From sequence record MH791409.1: a DNA stretch of 64,000 bases. One strand, given 5' to 3'. Positions 4,245 through 58,515 of this stretch are shown piece after piece. The position numbers were made by a program, and so were the translations under genes. The DNA comes from Escherichia phage EcWhh-1. A model generated the notes under the pieces. The model worked only from the letters and a program-made list of their open reading frames with translations, did not search any database and had not been told where the DNA came from. Within the stretch, counting starts at the first letter, position 1; each line of letters begins with the position of its first letter.

Positions 4245-4278
4245 TTATATCATAGTATTTGGAGACCCGTTTAAAGCA
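4245..4278 (-). promoter_or_regulatory. Middle/early promoter-like element upstream of gene 55 (TGCTTTAA MotA-box-like, TACTAT/TATAAT)
   Basis: minus strand ATGCTTTAAACGGGTCTCCAAATACTATGATATAATAGACC with GGTCT/AGACC stem. Confidence 0.4.
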
Positions 4279-13001: not shown

Positions 13002-13526
13002 TTATGCGAGAACCGTCTTTAAACGCTCTTCAAATTTCTGAAGCAGAGCTTGGCGTTCAGCTCGTTGTGATTTGTACTGCTCGATACGACCTGAAGTGAG
13101 GGCGTACTGTTCGTTTACTGATTCCCGCATGAATTCAGGAATCTCTTTACACGCTTTGATTTCGTCAAACTTATCAATAACCGCTTGTTCCTCGGCAATC
13201 AGATTATCGAAATAAGCGATATCAGATTTAACATTTGCCAGGTCGGATTCAGTAGGCATTAAACGTTTGTTACGTTCAGCTTGATAAGCTTGATTGTTTT
13301 CACGGCTCCAGTAAAGAATACGTTTTTTGTTAGTGTTTTTATAGAGCTCTACAATACCAACTGAATCGATGATAGCAATCCAGTTCCAACGGCTTTTGTA
13401 AATCTCTCCTCCAGATACGGTAATCTCATTACCACAAGCAACGTCGTTAAAGAACTTGCTTTGTTTTTCAGATTTGAAATTACCATTATTAAAATTAATC
13501 AGTGAAAAAATATCTTTAGCGTTCAT
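13002..13526 (-). CDS. Hypothetical protein, 174 aa
   Basis: SD GGAGGTTATC + ATG; promoter cassette upstream. Confidence 0.6.
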   Translation of the reverse strand: MNAKDIFSLINFNNGNFKSEKQSKFFNDVACGNEITVSGGEIYKSRWNWIAIIDSVGIVELYKNTNKKRILYWSRENNQAYQAERNKRLMPTESDLANVKSDIAYFDNLIAEEQAVIDKFDEIKACKEIPEFMRESVNEQYALTSGRIEQYKSQRAERQALLQKFEERLKTVLA

Positions 13527-13531
13527 GATAA

Positions 13532-13581
13532 CCTCCAGTAGTTGATAGGTCTATAGTATCATTTCTACTGGAGATGTAAAC
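13532..13581 (-). promoter_or_regulatory. PeSL-like early promoter cassette (GTTTAC, 17 bp, TACTAT, in stem CTCCAGTAG/CTACTGGAG)
   Basis: minus strand GTTTACATCTCCAGTAGAAATGATACTATAGACCTATCAACTACTGGAGG. Confidence 0.6.
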
Positions 13582-13583
13582 AA

Positions 13584-13925
13584 CTAATAGAAACTTTTTT
13601 CACCGGATTGACCACTAAACCAAGCGGATTGGGTGTTCTCTTTCCGTTGGTGTTTAATACGAATAAGGTATTCATTCCTGATGGCGCAGAGTTCACCTCG
13701 GAAGTCGCCTGCCAACTTTACCTGCTTACGGTCTAGATTTATTAAGGCCTGAGTCTTAGCGGCCAAGGCCAGTCTCTTGTAGTCTCCTTCTTCACAATCG
13801 GTTTTATAAACCTTTTCGGCGAATTTGTATTTAAATTCATTATCATAGTCCTCGACGGACTGTTTCATGGCATTAGAGTACTTCAACTCTGCTTTTATAA
13901 GGTCGTAACTAAATTGTTCGAACAT
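13584..13925 (-). CDS. Hypothetical protein, 113 aa
   Basis: ORF; no motif recognised. Confidence 0.55.
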   Translation of the reverse strand: MFEQFSYDLIKAELKYSNAMKQSVEDYDNEFKYKFAEKVYKTDCEEGDYKRLALAAKTQALINLDRKQVKLAGDFRGELCAIRNEYLIRIKHQRKENTQSAWFSGQSGEKSFY

Positions 13926-13935
13926 AATTTCACCT

Positions 13936-14916
13936 TTATTTCAGAAGTGTAACTTCAGCGATTTCGTTCCAGTCATTTTTATCAGTGGCAATGAAGTCCG
14001 CCAGATAAAGAGCTGTACGTAATGATACGTTACGAAGACGAGATACATTAGCCTTCATCCATGCTAAAGCTTGATAAGTCTCAGCATCAGTCAGACCTCG
14101 ATTTTGCATCATATCAGTGGACAGGATAACGTCTTCAACACGAACCATAATCTCTTCGTTCGAGTGAACTCCGAGGTCTAAGTAAACTGAACGAGATACT
14201 AAAGCCTGGAGGTGTGGAGCAAGTTTAGTTCCACGCTCTAATTCACGGTCAATATCAACGTTGGTGATGAACACGATGGTGCCTTCGTATTCGAATTCTT
14301 TATCGATATTTTTATCATCGAGGTAAGAACTTGAAGTGCTCCAGCACACTTTACGTTTTTCACCAGTATCCAATGCTGCTTTTAACAGGTTCAGGATATC
14401 CATATCAGAGAATACATCAACATCATCGATAAGAAGAACACTATTAGGGCCGCGGTTATTCCAAAGCTGCTCGTAAAGACCGATTCCACTAATCTTTCCG
14501 TTGATTGATTTATATTCGATAGTTTCATTTTCGTGGGCATTTTGTAATGCTTTATCCAAAGAATACGTTTTACCAATACCTGCGGCACCAGAGATGATAA
14601 GGGAACGAATTTTACCATCGATGATTCCGTTGGTCATCATGTTCATTACTTTAAAACGTTTGTTGATGCGATGTTTCATTTCTTCAGCGGATTCAGTAAT
14701 CACTACAGGAGCTTCAGTACCTTCCATTTCAACGTCACATTTGAACACCCATACACCACGTTCAACACCATCAATCTGTACGAATACCTTGCCATCACCG
14801 AGGTGAGCTTCGGATTCATGAATTTTATTTGGGAACCAGGTTTTACCTGAACTCATGAACGTACCAGAGATTTCATTACCGCGATAGATACCTTTGTTGA
14901 TTTTGATAGTTAACAT
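13936..14916 (-). CDS. P-loop NTPase (AAA-like ATPase), about 326 aa
   Basis: Walker A LIISGAAGIGKTYS, Walker B-like VLLIDDVD; start moved to ATG 14916 with SD GAAGGAGAA. Confidence 0.65.
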   Translation of the reverse strand: MLTIKINKGIYRGNEISGTFMSSGKTWFPNKIHESEAHLGDGKVFVQIDGVERGVWVFKCDVEMEGTEAPVVITESAEEMKHRINKRFKVMNMMTNGIIDGKIRSLIISGAAGIGKTYSLDKALQNAHENETIEYKSINGKISGIGLYEQLWNNRGPNSVLLIDDVDVFSDMDILNLLKAALDTGEKRKVCWSTSSSYLDDKNIDKEFEYEGTIVFITNVDIDRELERGTKLAPHLQALVSRSVYLDLGVHSNEEIMVRVEDVILSTDMMQNRGLTDAETYQALAWMKANVSRLRNVSLRTALYLADFIATDKNDWNEIAEVTLLK

Positions 14917-14940
14917 TTTATTCTCCTTCACTCAGTAGAT

Positions 14941-14980
14941 TTGATAGGTCTATAATAACATGTTTGAAATGGATGTACAC
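14941..14980 (-). promoter_or_regulatory. Early promoter cassette (GTGTAC, 17 bp, TATTAT, TAGACCTATCAA)
   Basis: minus strand GTGTACATCCATTTCAAACATGTTATTATAGACCTATCAA. Confidence 0.5.
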
Positions 14981-14982
14981 AC

Positions 14983-15213
14983 TTATTTTGCAATAATTTC
15001 ACAGAAGCCATCTTTATAGCGGGCCCATGTTTCACCATTTACTGTATAAAGAGCAGCTTTACGACCATTAGGCATAACAACTTGTTTACCTTTGTTTTTA
15101 GTTACAGCTTCAATAATTTCGTATTCTTCGGCACGATCAGCTTTAAATGTATCTTCCAGAGCGATCAAGTTAGTAGTGTAAGAACCGTATTTGTAATTTT
15201 TGATAGCGTACAT
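14983..15213 (-). CDS. Hypothetical protein, 76 aa
   Basis: SD ACGGAGA + ATG; promoter cassette upstream. Confidence 0.55.
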   Translation of the reverse strand: MYAIKNYKYGSYTTNLIALEDTFKADRAEEYEIIEAVTKNKGKQVVMPNGRKAALYTVNGETWARYKDGFCEIIAK

Positions 15214-15251
15214 TTTTATATCTCCGTTTGGTTTAAGTTTTCAGCTCTTTA

Positions 15252-15292
15252 GCTGATAGGTCTATAATAACATGTTTAAAGCAGATGTACAC
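15252..15292 (-). promoter_or_regulatory. Early promoter cassette (GTGTAC, 17 bp, TATTAT, TAGACCTATCAGC)
   Basis: minus strand GTGTACATCTGCTTTAAACATGTTATTATAGACCTATCAGC. Confidence 0.5.
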
Positions 15293-15312
15293 TACTTTTT
15301 TGCACTAAACCC

Positions 15313-18315: not shown

Positions 18316-18546
18316 TTAAATTTTTTCGAATAATGCTAAAGCTTTTTCGATAGCTACAGATTTAGTACCAATAACCATTTTAGGCTGGTATTGGAACTTA
18401 GTAGCTTCGTAAACTTCTAAACCGGTTACTTTACCATTTTGTTCGATAATAGCAAAGGTGGCGTTTTCAAAATCTTCAGCTTTAACTTTAAGTGCTTTAG
18501 AAGCTTTAGCGATATCGATAACTTTCAGGTTGGTGATGGTTTTCAT
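18316..18546 (-). CDS. Hypothetical protein, 76 aa
   Basis: SD GAGGAGAA + ATG; promoter cassette upstream. Confidence 0.5.
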   Translation of the reverse strand: MKTITNLKVIDIAKASKALKVKAEDFENATFAIIEQNGKVTGLEVYEATKFQYQPKMVIGTKSVAIEKALALFEKI

Positions 18547-18562
18547 TTTGTTCTCCTCATTA

Positions 18563-18603
18563 GTTGGTAGGTCTATAGTATCATGTTCCTAGAGGATGTA
18601 AAC
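18563..18603 (-). promoter_or_regulatory. Early promoter cassette (GTTTAC, 17 bp, TACTAT, TAGACCTACCAAC)
   Basis: minus strand GTTTACATCCTCTAGGAACATGATACTATAGACCTACCAAC. Confidence 0.55.
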
Positions 18604-18612
18604 ACCTAAACG

Positions 18613-22006: not shown

Positions 22007-22465
22007 TTAAAGATAGATTACTTTCGTGCTGGTTTTACCTTCTAAACGTTTAGAGTTAACAAATGCCATACGACATTTTAATGAATATCCTTTATCAGGA
22101 TGTTTACGATCTACGGTCATACCCAACCATAAGGTTTTATCGGTAATCTCGAGACGCAGCGGACGATACACCTTACCTGGGACAATTTCGGATTCTACAT
22201 CAGGCAGAGGTTCCTGGATTAAGAATTCATGGATTTCTTTAACATGGTTATGGAGTTGCTTGAATAAAGCAAAAACGTATTTTTCGTCGATTTCACGTTG
22301 GATAGCACGGTCCAACAAATGATTGGAGTACTTAATAAAGAAGGCTGGGACTCCGCTCTTAATGGCGGCTTTTTTGATGGACGCATTCAGTTCACGGAAT
22401 TCGGTTTCAAACTGACGACGTAATTTGTTGCGGCGGATGAATACTTCTGAATTAATTTCTGACAT
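22007..22465 (-). CDS. regB: Endoribonuclease RegB
   Basis: 152 aa; EVFIRRNKLRRQFETEFREL...HLLDRAIQREIDEKYVF...LEITDKTLWLG matches T4 RegB. Confidence 0.9.
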   Translation of the reverse strand: MSEINSEVFIRRNKLRRQFETEFRELNASIKKAAIKSGVPAFFIKYSNHLLDRAIQREIDEKYVFALFKQLHNHVKEIHEFLIQEPLPDVESEIVPGKVYRPLRLEITDKTLWLGMTVDRKHPDKGYSLKCRMAFVNSKRLEGKTSTKVIYL

Positions 22466-22471
22466 TTTGTA

Positions 22472-22522
22472 ATCTCCTGTAGTTGATAGGTTTATAGTAT
22501 CATGTCTACAGGAGATGTAAAC
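22472..22522 (-). promoter_or_regulatory. PeSL-like early promoter cassette upstream of regB (GTTTAC, 17 bp, TACTAT, stem TCTCCTGTAG/CTACAGGAGA)
   Basis: minus strand GTTTACATCTCCTGTAGACATGATACTATAAACCTATCAACTACAGGAGATT. Confidence 0.6.
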
Positions 22523-22526
22523 TGCT

Positions 22527-22736
22527 TTATTCTTGGAATGGGGTAAGTTTTCCAGCAGCTGAACAAATTTCTACCAGTACAGGGTAAAACTCTTTCACTT
22601 GTTCAAGGCGTTGGGCTGCATACTGTACTTCGCCTTCTTCGAGACAAGCCATTTGGTCGTCAAGCAAGTATTTGTGGTAACCAGTACAGGCTTCACCGAT
22701 GATACGTTGGAAATCTTGCAAACTTTCAATTTTCAT
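22527..22736 (-). CDS. Hypothetical protein, about 69 aa
   Basis: start moved to ATG 22736 (TGATG overlap). Confidence 0.4.
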   Translation of the reverse strand: MKIESLQDFQRIIGEACTGYHKYLLDDQMACLEEGEVQYAAQRLEQVKEFYPVLVEICSAAGKLTPFQE

Positions 22737-24545: not shown

Positions 24546-24962
24546 TTAAGCGTAAATAGCCTTACCATAATGTTTGTACCAGGTAGGGCGCTGTGCAATT
24601 TTTTCGTCTAAACGGGCTTGTGAAATAGCGATAGAAGCTTCGTGAGGAACATAATCACCACGGAATTCCTGAGGAATATCACTAATGTCCTGGACCGTAG
24701 TATCCTTGATATTAAAACCACGTTTTAAACATTCGGCTATAAGCTCAATTTGTCGCTTACGTAAAAATTCAAGCTTATCGTAAAAGAATGTAACATGGCC
24801 TGTGCCAAGGATAAAAGTAGGACTGATTTTAAAATCACGAACACGTTTACCGTTAGCAACATGCTTACGAACTGCACCGAAAACACGTGGTAATTCACGA
24901 TATTCAGCCATTAAGTGTTGGTCAGCCAATTCAGATACTAAGGTAAGGTTGATACGAGTCAT
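24546..24962 (-). CDS. denV: Endonuclease V (pyrimidine-dimer DNA glycosylase) DenV
   Basis: 138 aa; [53 protein letters not shown]... near-identical to T4 DenV. Confidence 0.93.
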
Positions 24963-24970
24963 TTTTTAAT

Positions 24971-25020
24971 CTCCTGTAGTTGATAGGTCTATAGTATCAT
25001 GCCTACAGGAGAAGTAAACT
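24971..25020 (-). promoter_or_regulatory. PeSL-like early promoter cassette upstream of denV
   Basis: minus strand GTTTACTTCTCCTGTAGGCATGATACTATAGACCTATCAACTACAGGAGATT. Confidence 0.6.
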
Positions 25021-25418
25021 TATTTGTAAGTTTTCATCCAATTCTTAAACAAAGCTGCGACGTCTTTCTCTTTAACGTTCAATTTAACGTCCAGCATTTT
25101 GCCACCAGCGGCACGTGTCTGACGAATCTTAGCCGTACCGGTTTCGCCATTCCACTCAACATAATACTGTCCGGTGTTCATAGCGATACCATCGCCATAG
25201 TCTTCGTTCTTAGAAGTAGTGAATGCTAACTTCATGGTCTTAGAGACACGGGCCTGCATGCCTGTCTGCAGAGCGTTACGAACGCGAATAACCTGAGGAG
25301 TGGCCTGGGTAAGGTTCTCATTCAGTTCTTCAGTGAACTCTTCGGATTCAAACATCGCCAAAAGTTCTTTAGATGCAGGAATTACATTCTCTGCGATAAA
25401 TTCATTATAAGTTTTCAT
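25020..25418 (-). CDS. Internal-protein-like capsid-targeted protein ([13 protein letters not shown]), 132 aa
   Basis: N-terminal [11 protein letters not shown] leader. Confidence 0.6.
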
Positions 25419-27892: not shown

Positions 27893-28105
27893 TTACTTTT
27901 TGTTGAAAAAGTACATTTTACCTTTAGGGGACAAGGATACACGAAGTGCATTACCAATACCAACTGAACATTTAACCAGGTCAGCAGATTTCAATTCACC
28001 AAATGCTTGACGAAGGTCTCCATCACGAGTGTTAACCATCAGGCATTTAGCACCAGCTGCACGAACTTCGTTTAACATGTTGATTGCTTGATTAGAAAGT
28101 TTCAT
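27893..28105 (-). CDS. Hypothetical protein, about 70 aa
   Basis: start moved to ATG 28105 with SD GGAG; ORF-track N-terminus runs through the promoter cassette. Confidence 0.45.
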   Translation of the reverse strand: MKLSNQAINMLNEVRAAGAKCLMVNTRDGDLRQAFGELKSADLVKCSVGIGNALRVSLSPKGKMYFFNKK

Positions 28106-28130
28106 TTTATTCTCCATTTCACTCTGTTGT

Positions 28131-28173
28131 TTTGATAGGTCTATAGTATCACACCTATAGACCTTGTAAACAA
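28131..28173 (-). promoter_or_regulatory. PeSL-like early promoter cassette (GTTTAC, 17 bp, TACTAT; stem AGGTCTATAG/CTATAGACCT)
   Basis: minus strand GTTTACAAGGTCTATAGGTGTGATACTATAGACCTATCAAAAC. Confidence 0.55.
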
Positions 28174-28183
28174 TTTTATGCAA

Positions 28184-29143
28184 TTATTTTTCGAAAGGAC
28201 GAATTAAATGATGGTTATCTTGGAATCGTTTGATGTAGTCACTTTCACCTAAAGTCTTGTACATATTAACCACAGCTTGGTAGTTTTCCCATGCATAAGT
28301 GCGGAACCAACCTGAAGTGATTGAGGTACACACTTTCTCAAGAGCCATATAGAAACTTAATGATGGTGAAATATTGAAGTCATTAGGAACCTGTGAACGT
28401 TCTAGTGCCAGGACACAAGTTTCTTCATATACACCAGCCAGTTTAATAGCTTCAGGCAAAGCCTCGAACTTCTCACGAGAGGTCATGACTTCAGAACCTT
28501 CCTTCATATAAAAGGTATATGCAGGGCGCCCTGCCAATGCCACTGCTTCATGGATAGAGTCGTGGTCTAGCGTATAAATGGTATCGTTAAAGAACGATGA
28601 TTTGTTTACATCCAATTTAGGGTGCTTGTAGCTCAACGTTTCTTTTTGACGTTGCAGCATAATTTCCTGGAGTTCTTCGTTCAGGGTGATACCTTTATTA
28701 CGAAGGTATTTGATGTGGGACATAGTTTTCAGGAAGAAAGGATTATTCTTCAGGAAACGATGAGAGGTTTTGATAGCCAGACAGATATCAGGCGTGGCCC
28801 AATAAAAGCCTGTCATACGGTCCTTTTTAATATGATTTTCAGCATATTTTAGGAGACGATAACTTGAGGTGAAATCTTCGTCTTGAAGCTCACCGGTGAT
28901 TTCTCGTACGTTAGTCAGAGCACGAACGATATATGCTTCAAAATAGGTTTCTTTACCGTTGTACATGCATTTAAAAGCCTGGACATCAGGGTTATCCACA
29001 GGAACATGGGCGCCGAACATCCGAGCTTTAAAGTGGTTCCATGAGCCTTGGTCGGCAATGAAATCCCAATCAGAATTTTCGATATACTTACTTTCAATCA
29101 GACCAGCGTGGTGCAGTGCACGAGAACCAATAACTAACATCAT
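28184..29143 (-). CDS. Hypothetical protein, 319 aa
   Basis: SD AGGAAAAT + ATG; no motif recognised. Confidence 0.55.
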   Translation of the reverse strand: MMLVIGSRALHHAGLIESKYIENSDWDFIADQGSWNHFKARMFGAHVPVDNPDVQAFKCMYNGKETYFEAYIVRALTNVREITGELQDEDFTSSYRLLKYAENHIKKDRMTGFYWATPDICLAIKTSHRFLKNNPFFLKTMSHIKYLRNKGITLNEELQEIMLQRQKETLSYKHPKLDVNKSSFFNDTIYTLDHDSIHEAVALAGRPAYTFYMKEGSEVMTSREKFEALPEAIKLAGVYEETCVLALERSQVPNDFNISPSLSFYMALEKVCTSITSGWFRTYAWENYQAVVNMYKTLGESDYIKRFQDNHHLIRPFEK

Positions 29144-33048: not shown

Positions 33049-33312
33049 TTATTTCATATTATTGAAATAATCTTCCGCATCAAAATCATTATCGTGATAA
33101 ACTTTGGTCGACAATTTAACGTACCCTTCAGCAGCAAACATATTAACCACAACCTTTACGGTATACCACTGCCCATCGTCATTACCCATTACTGCGTAAG
33201 TTTCAAATATAGGATGGTCATCACCTATAACTTTAATATCGTTTACTGTAGCACCAAATTCTTCAGGAACGCATTTCATAAAGAAATTAAACAATTCACC
33301 ATAATTATCCAT
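33049..33312 (-). CDS. Hypothetical protein, about 87 aa
   Basis: start moved to ATG 33312 with SD GAAGGAGAG. Confidence 0.5.
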   Translation of the reverse strand: MDNYGELFNFFMKCVPEEFGATVNDIKVIGDDHPIFETYAVMGNDDGQWYTVKVVVNMFAAEGYVKLSTKVYHDNDFDAEDYFNNMK

Positions 33313-33329
33313 TTTACTCTCCTTCACTC

Positions 33330-33376
33330 TGTTGTTTTGATAGGTCTATAGTATCACGTTTAAAGGAGGTGTAAAC
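33330..33376 (-). promoter_or_regulatory. Early promoter cassette (GTTTAC, 17 bp, TACTAT, TAGACCTATCAAAAC)
   Basis: minus strand GTTTACACCTCCTTTAAACGTGATACTATAGACCTATCAAAACAACAGAGTGAAGGAG. Confidence 0.55.
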
Positions 33377-33410
33377 AACTTTGTGAAATTATTTTTAGAT
33401 TAAACCCCCT

Positions 33411-33430
33411 AAAAGGAGACCGAAGTCTCC
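33411..33430 (-). terminator. Terminator-like hairpin GGAGAC-TTCG-GTCTCC followed by TTTT
   Basis: directly after stop of IPIII-like gene. Confidence 0.45.
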
Positions 33431-33435
33431 TTTCA

Positions 33436-34053
33436 TTATTTACGGGTCTTTTCGAACTGAGCGGCGTCACCTGCAAGGCGGCGGGCTTGACGAAGTTTGT
33501 TATCAATTTCTTCGTGCATAGGCTGGGTATACTTAAGGCCTTCAACCGTCAGGTAAAGACGATAGAGGTCCGGGGTATCTAGGTTGTTAATGTGTTGACC
33601 ATTACGAAGAACATTGAATTCTCGAACAAGTTGTTTAGTTTCGGATTCGATTTCCGACACTAAAGAAGCCAGCTGGTTATATTTTTTAACAATAGTGCTG
33701 GTGTCGAACTTGATTTTAGGTTTAGGAGCTTCTTTTACAGGCTCTGCTTTAGGTGTAGGTTTCGGTGCTGCAACTTTGGTCTGAGCCGCGGGTTTAGAAA
33801 CAGGAGCTTTAGCTGGTTTAGCAGGCTTAGTAGAGCCACCGGCTACGATATCTTTAAAAGCTTTGGAAGCTTTGTAATATTCTTTCTGGCTACTAGTATC
33901 AAAACCATACATATCATAAACGTTTTTAAAGAACTCGGTAGTGGTTTTAGTCCCTGAAATTTTATCATAAGCAGCTTGCCACATATCTTTAGTCATGCGC
34001 ACGCTGGCTTCATTCAGAACGCTTTCGTTCAAAAATTCATTGTAAGTTTTCAT
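33436..34053 (-). CDS. Internal protein III-like capsid-targeted protein (CTS MKTYNEFLNE), 205 aa
   Basis: CTS leader; Lys/Ala/Pro-rich central region (KPAKPAKAPVSKPAAQTKVAAPKPTPKAEPVKEAPKPK) like T4 IPIII; late promoter upstream. Confidence 0.65.
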   Translation of the reverse strand: MKTYNEFLNESVLNEASVRMTKDMWQAAYDKISGTKTTTEFFKNVYDMYGFDTSSQKEYYKASKAFKDIVAGGSTKPAKPAKAPVSKPAAQTKVAAPKPTPKAEPVKEAPKPKIKFDTSTIVKKYNQLASLVSEIESETKQLVREFNVLRNGQHINNLDTPDLYRLYLTVEGLKYTQPMHEEIDNKLRQARRLAGDAAQFEKTRK

Positions 34054-34081
34054 TATTGTTTCCTGTGTTAATTAACTTATC

Positions 34082-34089
34082 TATTTATA
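34082..34089 (-). promoter_or_regulatory. Late promoter TATAAATA
   Basis: exact TATAAATA on minus strand about 28 nt upstream of ATG 34053. Confidence 0.5.
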
Positions 34090-34117
34090 CAAAAAGGCCC
34101 AACCTTTCGGAAGGGCC
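34090..34117 (-). terminator. Rho-independent terminator (GGCCC...GGGCC stem + T-tract)
   Basis: minus strand GGCCCTTCCGAAAGGTTGGGCCTTTTTG; identical hairpin at 34712-34740. Confidence 0.55.
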
Positions 34118-34122
34118 GTAAA

Positions 34123-34677
34123 TCAGTTCTTGTAGAACCGGAACGGGTTCACGTGGAAGGCCAACATAGCTTTAGGGATTTTACGAGACAAAAGACTCTT
34201 AAGCTTCCAGCCACAGTACACGCGAAGGTAAAATGTGATTCCGCCGACCTTAAGATAAGGAACTGAAGCAAATACACCCCAGGCGTCATCATTCCACATC
34301 CACAACCAACCATGGTGAGCTTTATCAGGAGAACCTGATTCTACGTCAGGATTACCACGATAATGGAATTCCGAGCTACAATCACGGCCTAGTTTATGAT
34401 AAGCAAAGTTATAAGCTTTATTTCGCCATAGCCAAGCTACTCTCTGGAGATAAACACCACCAGGCATTTTCCTGATTTTAGCCCAACGTTTAATATGACC
34501 TTTATCGCCGTCAATTGGATTATCGTATGTCATCATCCAATCAAAACCGTATGGCAATTTACCAGTCTTTTTATTATGAAAAGGAACCACAAAAGGCGCA
34601 AGGATAACGGCTAGAACCATAGAGATAAAATCTAGTGGGACCAACAGAATCCAACTCAAATATTTTAAAAGTTTCAT
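34123..34677 (-). CDS. Late-expressed membrane protein, 184 aa
   Basis: N-terminal hydrophobic helices; SD AGGAAATAAT + ATG; late promoter upstream. Confidence 0.6.
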   Translation of the reverse strand: MKLLKYLSWILLVPLDFISMVLAVILAPFVVPFHNKKTGKLPYGFDWMMTYDNPIDGDKGHIKRWAKIRKMPGGVYLQRVAWLWRNKAYNFAYHKLGRDCSSEFHYRGNPDVESGSPDKAHHGWLWMWNDDAWGVFASVPYLKVGGITFYLRVYCGWKLKSLLSRKIPKAMLAFHVNPFRFYKN

Positions 34678-34703
34678 ATTATTTCCTAAGTTAGTTTACT
34701 GTA

Positions 34704-34711
34704 TATTTATA
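34704..34711 (-). promoter_or_regulatory. Late promoter TATAAATA
   Basis: exact TATAAATA on minus strand 27 nt upstream of ATG 34677. Confidence 0.5.
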
Positions 34712-34740
34712 CAAAAAAGGCCCAACCTTTCGGAAGGGCC
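34712..34740 (-). terminator. Rho-independent terminator (same hairpin as 34090-34117) + T6
   Basis: minus strand GGCCCTTCCGAAAGGTTGGGCCTTTTTTGT. Confidence 0.55.
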
Positions 34741-34745
34741 TTTCA

Positions 34746-34976
34746 CCTAGGGTAACCTTGTCGGGGTTCCACCTGCTAGGCAAGTGTTCGGTGCGCCGTT
34801 TCAGCTGTGAGATAAGGGACTTTAAGAGGAACTCATGTACGCCTTAAAGTCGGGTCTTATTCAGGGAACTTCAGTCCGACGACTTACCGGTAGCGACCCG
34901 GTTTCTTGTTTGTTGCGCCGGTGAATGCTGGTAATCAGTCTTCATACGACGGCTTGACTATATAATAGTCTTCATT
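34746..34976 (-). ncRNA. Candidate stable small RNA region downstream of tRNA-Arg (position of T4 RNA C/RNA D)
   Basis: about 230 nt with no ORF, between tRNA 3' end and a terminator, with local hairpins; identity unverified. Confidence 0.25.
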
Positions 34977-35051
34977 TGGTATCCCGCCCTGGGATCGAAC
35001 CAGGACCGCAAACTTAGAAGGATCGTATGCTATCCATTACACCAGCGGGAC
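34977..35051 (-). tRNA. tRNA-Arg (anticodon UCU), CCA encoded
   Basis: minus strand GTCCCGCTGGTGTAATGGATAGCATACGATCCTTCTAAGTTTGCGGTCCTGGTTCGATCCCAGGGCGGGATACCA; 7-bp acceptor stem, T-loop TTCGATC, anticodon loop CTTCTAA. Confidence 0.85.
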
Positions 35052-35673
35052 GTAATTTATTTAAAAGACAAGACAAATCGGAAATCTCATCTTTTTCTAA
35101 AACTATCAAATTTTCTAAAGCTTTCCATTTACAAAGGTCTCTATCTCTTTTATATCCTTTGACTTCTATATAAAAATCATAAGTGGGTAAATAAAAATCA
35201 GGAAAATAGAGATGTTCTGAACCTTCCCATTCGTAAGGAATTGGCTTTATTTCATTAGTATATTTGATATTGTGTTCTTTTAAAAACTTAGCAACTTTTA
35301 ATTCCCAGGTCCCTTTAAATTTAAATCCGTCAAACTCGTATGTTTTTACTCGACCAGAAACATTAGAAGCAGAATATGAATCAGGATTATCAAGAACAGC
35401 TTGCCGCATTCTTTTAGAATGTGCTTCTTTGCGTTCATTAGACCATACATATCCTGTATTGGCTTTTCTAAGTTTTTCTCTGGTTTTATCAGAAACATTT
35501 ATTTCTTTACCTAGTTCTTTGGCTTTTGTAAATTGATTGACGCCTTTAAGACCAAAACGAGGGTTATTAGGGCCGCTCATATCCAATCCATTTGGGTTAG
35601 ATTTGCACCGTTTTTCATGTTGCTTTAGTGAATTTAAGTTTTTACATTCTTTAGAACAATATTGGCAAAGCAT
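35014..35673 (-). CDS. Zinc-finger PD-(D/E)xK-type nuclease (putative free-standing homing-endonuclease-like gene)
   Basis: N-terminal CQYCSKEC...HEKRC finger; C-terminal FPDFYLPTYDFYIEVKG resembles PDF...E-x-K nuclease core; start at ATG 35673 with SD GGAGA; 3' end overlaps tRNA-Arg by 38 nt. Confidence 0.6.
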   Translation of the reverse strand: MLCQYCSKECKNLNSLKQHEKRCKSNPNGLDMSGPNNPRFGLKGVNQFTKAKELGKEINVSDKTREKLRKANTGYVWSNERKEAHSKRMRQAVLDNPDSYSASNVSGRVKTYEFDGFKFKGTWELKVAKFLKEHNIKYTNEIKPIPYEWEGSEHLYFPDFYLPTYDFYIEVKGYKRDRDLCKWKALENLIVLEKDEISDLSCLLNKLRPAGVMDSIRSF

Positions 35674-35678
35674 AATTT

Positions 35679-35715
35679 TCTCCATGAATTTTATATAGAT
35701 ATTTATTCATGGAGA
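35679..35715 (-). promoter_or_regulatory. RBS-sequestering hairpin with late-promoter-like AATAAATA in its loop
   Basis: 11-bp inverted repeat TCTCCATGAAT/ATTCATGGAGA; 3' arm contains the GGAGA SD of the nuclease gene. Confidence 0.4.
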
Positions 35716-35825: not shown

Positions 35826-36245
35826 TTAACTAGACCAATTCCAACCTTCGGAAGGGCCATCATAGTGTACACAAATATCAGGCGAAATATTAAAATTGGT
35901 ACCATCCGAAGAAAAAACACCTAACTTTTTACCAAACTCGCTGAAACAGAACTGTTCACCGCCTGGTGACCAAACATCTTCAAATAAAACAGTGAATAGC
36001 CATCCGGCAATTAAATCGGCATCAAATTCTGTTACGCCGGAACACATTTCATATAACTCGTCATCACAGACTGTAGCCACAATATGAGCTGAGTGTTCTT
36101 TAGATTTTAACCAAATACGGATTAAATTCCCGTCAAAACAATTATAGTTAATTTCAGATGGTTGGCAGTTATAAAATACTTCTGTAGCGATTTCTGGATT
36201 TTCCCAGGTTTCGCTGTTAAAATCGATAAGAATTGGAGTAATCAT
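35826..36245 (-). CDS. Hypothetical protein, 139 aa
   Basis: SD GAGGAAAAT + ATG. Confidence 0.5.
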   Translation of the reverse strand: MITPILIDFNSETWENPEIATEVFYNCQPSEINYNCFDGNLIRIWLKSKEHSAHIVATVCDDELYEMCSGVTEFDADLIAGWLFTVLFEDVWSPGGEQFCFSEFGKKLGVFSSDGTNFNISPDICVHYDGPSEGWNWSS

Positions 36246-37514: not shown

Positions 37515-37699
37515 TATTCACCTTTAGAGATTTTATCCATAACGAAAGAGATTGAACCAATTAAGAATGCCACTACTAAAGAGATTGTATTCTCGGAAGT
37601 TGTAAGCAAATCCAACATGAATCCTGCAAACATACTAAAGCCAAAAGCAGTAACGGCGGTCAGTGCAGTAACATTTCTAATTAATTCACAACGTTTCAT
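37514..37699 (-). CDS. Small membrane protein, about 61 aa
   Basis: start moved to ATG 37699 with SD TGGAGAA; two hydrophobic helices. Confidence 0.45.
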   Translation of the reverse strand: MKRCELIRNVTALTAVTAFGFSMFAGFMLDLLTTSENTISLVVAFLIGSISFVMDKISKGE

Positions 37700-37721
37700 T
37701 TTATTCTCCAATCACTCATTT

Positions 37722-37765
37722 GTTTTGATAGGGCTATAGTATCATCACTAAAGCCCATTGTAAAC
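37722..37765 (-). promoter_or_regulatory. PeSL-like early promoter cassette (GTTTAC, 18 bp, TACTAT; stem GGGCT/AGCCC)
   Basis: minus strand GTTTACAATGGGCTTTAGTGATGATACTATAGCCCTATCAAAAC. Confidence 0.55.
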
Positions 37766-37767
37766 AA

Positions 37768-38040
37768 TTATTTTAAATAAATTGCATACTTTTTATAACC
37801 AGCCGTCTCGTGGCGCAACCCTTTTTCATTAGCAAAACGTTCAATATTGTTAATTTGATTCTGGTCAAGTTCTGAAGTATCAAATACAAAAAAGTTTCGC
37901 TTATTGCCTAAAGTTACATGATTAGTCAAATCAATGTTATAGAGATGATTTATATCATCAATCATAGTCTTAACAGATTTGTTAATTTTTACTTCCTCAT
38001 TAAGAATAGATTCAGCGATAAATTCTTGATAAGTTTTCAT
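37768..38040 (-). CDS. Internal-protein-like capsid-targeted protein (CTS MKTYQEFIAE), 90 aa
   Basis: CTS leader identical to T4 IP leader MKTYQEFIAE. Confidence 0.6.
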   Translation of the reverse strand: MKTYQEFIAESILNEEVKINKSVKTMIDDINHLYNIDLTNHVTLGNKRNFFVFDTSELDQNQINNIERFANEKGLRHETAGYKKYAIYLK

Positions 38041-38041
38041 T

Positions 38042-38266
38042 TTATTCTGCGCCAGCGGCTTTCAAAAGTTTTTTAAGATTGGCTGTACCTTGAGCAGAAA
38101 ACGTGACCTTGCCATCTTTTTCACCGATACTCCCGGTCAATTTAGCGAGCTTATCACTAGGGACTTTTTTAAAATCAGCCAATGTACCGTCAAAGGTTTT
38201 TGTAACAACCGGCAGTTGGTCTTCGTGTTTTTTAGCTTCTGTAATAAATTCTTGATAAGTTTTCAT
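38042..38266 (-). CDS. Internal-protein-like capsid-targeted protein (CTS MKTYQEFITE), about 74 aa
   Basis: start set at ATG 38266 (MKTYQEF) with SD TGGAAATCAAA. Confidence 0.55.
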   Translation of the reverse strand: MKTYQEFITEAKKHEDQLPVVTKTFDGTLADFKKVPSDKLAKLTGSIGEKDGKVTFSAQGTANLKKLLKAAGAE

Positions 38267-38290
38267 TTTGATTTCCATGTGGTTGGTTTG

Positions 38291-38332
38291 TTTTGATAGG
38301 CCTATAGTATCATGTCTATAGACCTTGTAAAC
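38291..38332 (-). promoter_or_regulatory. PeSL-like early promoter cassette (GTTTAC, 17 bp, TACTAT)
   Basis: minus strand GTTTACAAGGTCTATAGACATGATACTATAGGCCTATCAAAAC. Confidence 0.55.
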
Positions 38333-38344
38333 ACCTTTTTTAAA

Positions 38345-39228
<884 letters not shown>

Positions 39229-41950: not shown

Positions 41951-41958
41951 TATAAATA
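41951..41958 (+). promoter_or_regulatory. Late promoter TATAAATA for gene 53
   Basis: exact TATAAATA on plus strand 28 nt upstream of ATG 41986. Confidence 0.55.
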
Positions 41959-41965
41959 TTAATAT

Positions 41966-41973
41966 TATTTATA
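41966..41973 (-). promoter_or_regulatory. Late promoter TATAAATA for gene 4
   Basis: exact TATAAATA on minus strand 27 nt upstream of ATG 41939. Confidence 0.55.
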
Positions 41974-58482: not shown

Positions 58483-58487
58483 TAAAA

Positions 58488-58506
58488 GGGCTTCGGCCCT
58501 TTTTTG
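58488..58506 (+). terminator. Rho-independent terminator GGGC-TTCG-GCCC + T6 after wac
   Basis: AAAAGGGCTTCGGCCCTTTTTTG. Confidence 0.55.
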
Positions 58507-58507
58507 C

Positions 58508-58515
58508 TATAAATA
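58508..58515 (+). promoter_or_regulatory. Late promoter TATAAATA for gene 13
   Basis: exact TATAAATA 22 nt upstream of ATG 58537. Confidence 0.6.

Follow-up and report, generated by a model that had tools for sequence, protein, structure and literature searches.

A repeated predicted terminator/late-promoter cassette brackets an accessory gene beside the stable RNAs of a JS98-like phage and marks sites of gene gain, loss and reordering in its relatives

Two copies of a short element, which reads on the minus strand as a terminator hairpin followed by a predicted T4-type late promoter, lie on either side of a single accessory gene in the stretch of 64,000 nucleotides analysed here (the window). 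The window comes from a Dhakavirus, a T4-type phage resembling JS98, and in the matching part it has 99.5% identity to UP19 and 98.8% to JS98. Repeats of this terminator/late-promoter cassette probably insulate late genes and at the same time supply the homology through which these genes are lost, gained or reordered. In alignments of relatives, the limits of indels and rearrangements lie in the cassette or in T-runs of terminators, which is where recombination between repeats would put them; the recombination pathway is inferred, and each event may have been an insertion or a deletion. The result goes modestly beyond what is known, adding a late-promoter variant to the terminator/promoter shuffling cassettes described as PeSLs (promoter-early stem-loops) and at internal-protein (IP) loci.

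The two cassette copies are 36 and 37 nt long and are found at 34082-34117 (copy 1) and 34704-34740 (copy 2). They are direct repeats with a period of 623 bp, and are identical over 27 nt (AAAAAGGCCCAACCTTTCGGAAGGGCC, 34091-34117 and 34714-34740), beyond which TATTTATAC is also common to both, with one additional A in copy 2. The minus-strand sequence of both copies is GGCCCTTCCGAAAGGTTGGGCC-T5/6-G-TATAAATA. The 22-nt hairpin core GGCCCAACCTTTCGGAAGGGCC occurs exactly twice in the 64-kb window with up to three mismatches permitted, and has no match in any of 100 dinucleotide-preserving shuffles. The initial annotation had reported a 36-bp string occurring twice at these positions, which the exact identity, the shared TATTTATAC and the empty shuffles confirm.

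All genes around the repeat are on the minus strand. First in transcription order here is tRNA-Met (35818-35742), followed by a free-standing gene for a 223-aa endonuclease (35014-35685), which lies between tRNA-Met and tRNA-Arg(TCT) (34977-35051), the last tRNA of the unit that copy 2 is predicted to end. Alignment places a homologue of the T4 stable RNA rnaD, together with its tail, at 34741-34907 (rnaD itself at approximately 34907-34791), and the conserved tail of about 45 nt after rnaD (...GGTGGAACCCCGACAAGGTT...) runs into copy 2. By alignment, rnaC is present in phage KIT01 and not in the window. Rfam at the gathering score finds only the two tRNAs at this locus, and no family for the rnaD homologue; a BjrC68 match over the tail and hairpin at a lax threshold (21.8 bits against a cut-off of 39) was rejected as terminator-driven noise. 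A laboratory evolution study involving rnaC and rnaD found a point mutation in rnaD, separate from the cassette (PMC12685909).

Copy 2, the transcriptionally first copy, is composed of the hairpin (34740-34719), a U-run (34718-34713), a G (34712) and TATAAATA (34711-34704). It is followed by the gene for a 184-aa DUF7338 protein (34123-34677, with the ATG on the 34677 side), which forms a single-gene module between the repeats. The hairpin of copy 1 begins 5 nt past the DUF7338 stop codon (34117-34096), and is followed by a U-run (34095-34091), a G (34090) and TATAAATA (34089-34082). Next comes a 205-aa gene (33436-34053), a homologue of JS98 orf135 with an internal-protein-type N-terminus, and 3' of it an unrelated hairpin, GGAGAC-UUCG-GUCUCC plus U4 (33405-33433), which is the right-hand limit of the variable stretch, ahead of the e.8 early promoter. 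The e.8 early-promoter element TTTACA-16-TACTAT (33348-33375) is a member of a repeated early promoter/stem-loop cassette family.

The RNA of each copy is GGCCCUUCCGAAAGGUUGGGCC, with U5 (copy 1) or U6 (copy 2) directly 3' of the stem, then G and TATAAATA. The predicted thermodynamic fold is (((((..((....))..))))), with a free energy of -13.9 kcal/mol (z = -3.2, 97.5% of the ensemble): a 5-bp G+C stem, a 2x2 U.U/U.U internal loop, a 2-bp stem and a GAAA loop. Covariation was assessed with a search pattern in which stem positions 2 and 21 were unconstrained, allowing all four combinations. In 40 distinct genomic contexts this pair is always complementary (C-G in 29, G-C in 11, mismatched in none). 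A consensus terminator scan, which demands a contiguous stem of at least 5 pairs and a loop of 3-8 nt, called neither copy, because the 2x2 U.U internal loop interrupts the contiguous stem; as the miss is due to the stem rule of the scan, it is no evidence against the hairpin.

The T4 late-promoter consensus TATAAATA sits at -13 to -6 (PMC1524935). Both copies match it exactly, and they account for two of the nine TATAAATA sites on both strands of the 64-kb window. Three of the nine are directly behind a hairpin and T-run, namely copy 1, copy 2 and a site following an unrelated hairpin at 58484-58515. The distance from copy 1 to the ATG of the 205-aa ORF is 28 nt, and from copy 2 to the ATG of the 184-aa ORF 26 nt, with a ribosome-binding site, AGGAAA, 6-7 nt ahead of each ATG, in agreement with the earlier statement that each copy lies upstream of a gene. 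From the position of the consensus, transcription is predicted to start near 34698 for copy 2 and near 34076 for copy 1. The homologous element of Yersinia phage fPS-90 is annotated as a 'terminator' and a 'predicted late promoter'. Thus the fold, the covariation, the orthology with T4 described below and the fPS-90 annotation all support the initial reading of a minus-strand hairpin and T-tract with TATAAATA ahead of a gene, and both copies are predicted to terminate transcription and to fire as late promoters. A literature search for mapped transcripts from T4-like late promoters at this locus, or from Dhakavirus, gave nothing usable. A sigma-70 early promoter was also looked for in the cassette, where the best match (9/12, TATACA-16-AATAAT at 34705-34678) is no better than chance; the region has 11 sigma-70-like matches, against 11.5 expected from shuffles.

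The 184-aa protein belongs to Pfam DUF7338 (4.6e-63) and phrog_2143, and has one N-terminal hydrophobic segment by hydropathy. Its gene is missing, truncated or placed elsewhere in close relatives. DUF7338 homologues are found in 592 phage records, including those of unrelated Felixounaviruses at 55-58% identity. In other genera the gene is preceded by unrelated hairpins, and outside this group a late-promoter-like ATAAATA is present in L054-L057 and absent in RB43-like phages. The unrelated hairpins rule out a cassette that travels with DUF7338 across genera; what is kept is therefore the functional layout rather than the 36-nt sequence itself. No compositional sign of foreign origin is seen in the module: its G+C is 0.414, the mean for the window being 0.393 +/- 0.025, and a G+C equal to or above that of the module is reached in 21% of windows.

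The 205-aa protein belongs to phrog_2280 and to no Pfam family. It starts with MKTYNEFLNE, compared with MKTYQEFIAE in T4 IPIII, a propeptide type with a gp21-type cleavage motif; the role of this capsid-targeting sequence in T-even internal proteins has been described (PMC9026906). Beyond residue ~25 there is no significant similarity to T4 IPIII, and there is none to T4 IPI, so homology to IPIII or IPI is ruled out past the propeptide. Since the resemblance to IPIII is limited to the first ~25 residues, the protein is assigned to the internal-protein class and not as an IPIII homologue, and the label 'IPIII-like' of the initial annotation holds for the capsid-targeting propeptide but not for the remainder of the protein. 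The capsid-targeting N-terminus is also found in five further genes of the window, none of which has the late cassette; at least three of the five adjoin early promoter/stem-loop cassettes of repeated families.

The stretch from the RNA tail to e.8 was mapped in relatives from a viral-contig scan for the hairpin family and from database records, and at least eight architectures are found at this spot. T4 has the hairpin alone. L045 has the hairpin and late promoter, a 157-aa IP-like gene and a hairpin, while fPS-90 has the hairpin and late promoter, an IP-like gene, a hairpin, a second IP-like gene and another terminator. In dhaeg the hairpin and late promoter are followed by the orf135 homologue. 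The window, JS98, IME281 and KIT01 have the hairpin and late promoter, DUF7338, the hairpin and late promoter again, and orf135. In vB_EcoM_005 the hairpin and late promoter are followed by a chimeric IP-like gene, DUF7338 and a hairpin, which reverses the gene order of the window. IME341 has a variant-stem hairpin and AATAAATA, an IP-like gene of 154 aa, a different terminator, a DUF7338 remnant and a hairpin, and L009 and VR5 have the hairpin and late promoter, DUF7338 and then other genes. The junction of RNA tail, cassette and DUF7338 is found in 66 records, that of DUF7338, cassette and orf135 in 25, that of DUF7338, hairpin and e.8 promoter in 26, and that of RNA tail, cassette and IP-type leader in 408 (14 of them with ≥95% identity, most of the others being T-even phages with 80-90%). 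Each of these junction types is thus widespread among phage records. The search of related phages that the initial annotation had proposed as a check thus finds the cassette at gene boundaries in many genomes.

Several of these architectures differ by one gene. In alignment, dhaeg, without DUF7338, has a single cassette that combines the upstream flank of copy 2 with the downstream flank of copy 1, and the indel separating it from the window and JS98 is 623 bp, exactly one repeat period. L045 differs from T4 by a one-gene insertion with limits in the hairpin and TTTTTGGTAT repeats, and L009 differs from L024 by an insertion of DUF7338 with limits in GGGCTTTTTTATA. The IP-like gene of vB_EcoM_005 is a chimera of the first 17 codons of orf135 and a different IP body; its gene order is permuted, yet the hairpin stays at the 3' end of the module.

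A near-identical hairpin follows the stable RNAs in T4, fPS-90, dhaeg, JS98, KIT01 and IME341. The T4 hairpin after rnaC, which closes the region of the tRNAs and the species 1 and 2 RNAs, is orthologous in position and sequence to that of the window: the tail ...GGTGGAACCCCGACAAGGTT... leads into GCCCCGACCGAAAGGTTGGGGC and T5, the RNA being GCCCCGACCGAAAGGUUGGGGC and then U5. It differs in having a continuous 9-bp stem instead of one with a U.U/U.U internal loop, in GGTATCTAAG after the T-run in place of TATAAATA, and in being single with no gene inserted, whereas the two copies in the window bracket a gene. As T4 has a hairpin at the equivalent site with the same tail, copy 2 appears to be the ancestral end of the stable-RNA unit.

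In the mechanism proposed here, the two copies would be one composite regulatory element, a Rho-independent terminator abutting a gp55-dependent late promoter. Copy 2, as the ancestral terminator of the tRNA/rnaD unit, would stop transcription of that unit and restart late transcription into DUF7338; copy 1 would then stop the DUF7338 transcript and restart late transcription into the internal-protein-class gene. Homologous recombination between the copies, as direct repeats spaced at 623 bp, could delete the DUF7338 module exactly, leaving one chimeric cassette, and the reverse event would insert a module. Such recombination might be intramolecular, take place between co-infecting genomes or proceed via an excised circle. 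The cassette would accordingly have a double role, insulating single late genes and providing homology for their loss, gain, replacement and reordering.

Gene shuffling by cassettes, as suggested in the initial annotation, is supported in that the limits of gene presence and order in relatives lie on the cassette, but it is confined to a local hotspot with one to three copies per genome (690 places in 561 records). With so few copies per genome there are few chances for exchange outside the locus. Furthermore, the 36-nt sequence does not follow DUF7338 across genera, and the late promoter is missing from the copies at a third site and from several second copies. The third copy, found in several Dhakaviruses between convergent uvsW.1 and uvsY-side genes, does not carry TATAAATA, and a search of the window for this third-site copy was negative. 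In relatives with DUF7338 at the end of the gene row, the hairpin behind it directly adjoins the e.8 early promoter, again without TATAAATA. The recurrent unit therefore appears to be the hairpin, and not the full cassette.

The strongest alternative, which nonetheless seems unlikely, is that the element is pure transcriptional punctuation and plays no particular part in gene exchange; the copies would be identical through a single ancient duplication at the locus, or because neighbouring terminators underwent gene conversion, and the relatives would differ by ordinary homologous segment exchange between co-infecting phages and occasional illegitimate deletion. Such deletions exist at this locus: in VR5 an illegitimate deletion, outside any cassette, has brought the 3' end of orf135 directly behind the stop codon of DUF7338, and in IME341 an internal deletion within DUF7338 also has its limits outside any cassette, so that both indels clearly bypass it. 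The low copy number of the cassette is also in keeping with punctuation, as is the combination of a terminator and TATAAATA with the unrelated hairpin at 58484-58515 and with unrelated hairpins ahead of DUF7338 in other genera, which is evidence of functional selection on the layout. Against punctuation alone, at least three independent indels (dhaeg/JS98, L045/T4 and L009/L024) have both limits in the repeated hairpin or T-run, and the permutation of genes leaves the hairpin fixed at the module 3' end. Moreover, copies 1 and 2 agree even where no base pairs form, in the UU/UU internal loop and in the GAAA loop, an identity that function alone does not need.

Gene conversion driven by the neighbouring endonuclease, in which the product of the 35014-35685 gene cuts genomes lacking that gene, repair copies the DNA on either side, and the patchwork around the tRNA genes, the DUF7338 module included, is a by-product of co-conversion, is very improbable. 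The ORF between tRNA-Met and tRNA-Arg is indeed missing from JS98, the similarity of the window to UP19 and JS98 ends at ~34912, where the T4-type tRNA-Arg and an extra ~70 nt start, and the equivalent position in T4 is held by SegB, although the endonuclease of the window is not a SegB homologue (E = 0.41). However, the breakpoint at ~34912 is 170 nt from copy 2, and JS98, IME281 and KIT01 have the cassette-DUF7338-cassette arrangement without the endonuclease. Apparently DUF7338 is independent of the endonuclease, as JS98 and KIT01 have the former without the latter. Co-conversion would also leave unexplained why the repeat brackets exactly one gene. Chance resemblance or an assembly artefact is refuted by the shuffles and by the two-copy layout in the independently sequenced JS98, IME281, KIT01, UP19 and others (25 records), and has a negligible probability.

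The closest known systems are the PeSLs of T4-type phages (Arbiol, Comeau and Krisch 2010, PMC2839356; Comeau et al. 2014, PMC4122927). Genes flanked by PeSLs yield mini-circles through recombination between the flanking cassettes (PMC2839356). Like the cassette, PeSLs are intergenic elements of variable regions in which a stem-loop/terminator is joined to a promoter; they form direct repeats around single accessory genes, relatives keep one chimeric element, and the flanking elements are proposed to recombine by way of a circular intermediate. However, PeSLs carry a sigma-70-like early promoter with -35 and -10 elements where the cassette has the late TATAAATA, and they are dispersed in many copies per genome, whereas the cassette is present twice in the window and occupies no more than three places per genome. 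The anchor copy of the cassette also doubles as the terminator of the stable-RNA operon, unlike a PeSL. With the early promoter missing and the copy number low, the cassette is not classed as a PeSL. The phrase 'late promoter' is found in neither PMC2839356 nor PMC4122927. The window itself carries early promoter/stem-loop cassettes, in overlapping families D1 and D2 with 7 and 5 listed copies, which occupy about 8-12 places per genome. The analogy to early cassettes drawn in the initial annotation is sound as regards the logic, but the late cassette is not dispersed like the early families.

The IP loci of T-even phages, as summarized in PMC2839356 and PMC4122927 from Repoila et al. 1994, have interchangeable genes with a shared capsid-targeting N-terminus and flanking regulatory sequence, and their shuffling is proposed there to alter host range. 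The vB_EcoM_005 chimera, with its orf135 start and other IP body, fits the picture given in these summaries. In the account of Arbiol et al. (PMC2839356), the IP-locus elements are T4 early promoters and weak A+T-rich stem-loops at two loci, and no IP genes are placed outside these two. Compared with the IP loci of the later summaries, the cassette differs in lying between the stable RNAs and e.8 and in joining a G+C-rich hairpin to a predicted late promoter; the locus also carries the non-IP gene DUF7338.

If the cassette is a real recombination substrate, the PeSL concept reaches late genes as well as early ones, and the locus is a natural, predictable insertion site for late-expressed cargo in T4-like phages; if it is not, the arrangement is only tidy transcriptional punctuation. 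In these natural genomes predicted late accessory genes appear as promoter-gene-terminator units, and their gain, loss and reordering track a short repeat. T-even phages inject internal proteins that inhibit type IV restriction enzymes of the host, each protein being directed at one enzyme variant (PMC12373910), and exchange of internal-protein genes is therefore relevant to host range and to therapeutic phage design. A more speculative extension, and a rather doubtful one, is that the stable-RNA operon terminator is a dedicated landing pad, where one-gene circles with one cassette are excised and re-inserted in mixed infections. If true, this would be integron-like swapping of injected anti-defence and membrane genes prewired for late expression, a previously undescribed late-gene counterpart of PeSLs.

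Two further comparisons rest on work as it is cited in PMC2839356. Like the morons of lambdoid phages (Hendrix et al. 2000), the DUF7338 module is a single accessory gene with its own predicted promoter and terminator, placed between elements that are adjacent in relatives, and its gene family is also found in unrelated phage groups. Unlike a moron as cited there, it is co-oriented with its neighbours, has no compositional signature and is enclosed by repeats, and its phage is lytic. Finally, T4 deletions between genes 56 and dda are cited as having endpoints at GGGC/GCCC (Mosig et al. 1998), and the arms of the cassette hairpin similarly hold GCCC/GGGC inverted repeats, with natural indel endpoints located there.

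The hairpin of the terminator/late-promoter cassette is also found in other settings. In several Dhakavirus genomes an identical 22-nt hairpin followed by T6 separates uvsW.1 from the convergent genes on the uvsY side (L013, L028, L040, L042 at ~4246-4268, and L043, the L numbers being viral contigs or genomes from the scan for the hairpin family). This copy is a predicted terminator only, without the late promoter. The sequence GCCCC(G/T)GCCGAAAGGTTGGGGC, followed by a run of five T (T5), occurs in a set of unrelated contigs of viral origin, many with a length of ~38 kb, where its context is conserved and quite different (L007, L010, L012, L014-L016, L021, L022, L031-L033, L035, L038, L044 and L046). 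Thus, the hairpin design recurs beyond the T4-like phages, through either convergence or transfer.

Within the window, a partial match to the hairpin, GGCCCTTCCGAAGGTTGG (35832-35858, plus strand), falls in the 3' end of a 139-aa ORF (35826-36245, minus strand), where it occupies the final codons (...GPSEGWNWSS*). It matches the cassette hairpin over 18 nt with one base deleted and lies just ahead of tRNA-Met; the related phage IME341 and contig L008 have it as well. It is possibly what remains of a hairpin taken into the coding region.

A third terminator/late-promoter junction (58484-58515, plus strand) has the layout of the cassette with an unrelated hairpin, AAAAGGGCTTCGGCCCTTTTTTGC, followed by TATAAATA and, 22 nt further on, an ATG. 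Two additional TATAAATA sites, matching the late-promoter consensus, point apart on opposite strands at 41951-41973, inside a near-palindromic stretch of ~45 nt (…CCTCCTTATAAATATTAATATTATTTATACTCGGAGG…), each with a divergent ORF start ahead of it.

Early promoters are also combined with stem-loops, in minus-strand cassettes of 66-91 nt that form families (GTTTACA ... TACTATAGACCTATC) and resemble the PeSLs, the early-promoter cassettes of T4-type phages. They are found at 13522-13587, 14909-14999, 15233-15298, 18544-18609, 22463-22528, 24960-25025, 28100-28190, 33305-33395, 37693-37783 and 38261-38351, and a query containing one of them gave ~8-12 matches per Dhakavirus genome. Five further genes with the capsid-targeting motif, beginning MKTY(Q/N/S)EF, are encoded on the minus strand at both classical internal-protein loci (38554-38345, 38266-38042, 38040-37768, 25418-25020 and 24503-24204); none of the five carries the hairpin/TATAAATA cassette.

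Of the T4 stable RNAs, the window has a counterpart of rnaD and lacks rnaC; KIT01 has both. The regions compared include 34741-34907 of the window (minus strand) and 2880-3030 of contig L003. Neither RNA is represented by a family in Rfam. The conserved tail of ~45 nt that links the stable RNA to the hairpin is almost invariant from T4 to Dhakavirus. A free-standing endonuclease ORF of 223 aa (35014-35685, minus strand; phrog_15137, weak Phage_endo_I match) has tRNA-Met on one side and tRNA-Arg on the other, a place taken by tRNA-Asn in JS98. This slot is equivalent to that of T4 segB; homology to SegB was rejected (E = 0.41). The final 38 nt of this ORF overlap tRNA-Arg (34977-35051), which is of the T4 type and is followed by ~70 extra nt. 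Similarity of UP19 and JS98 to the window ends at ~34912.
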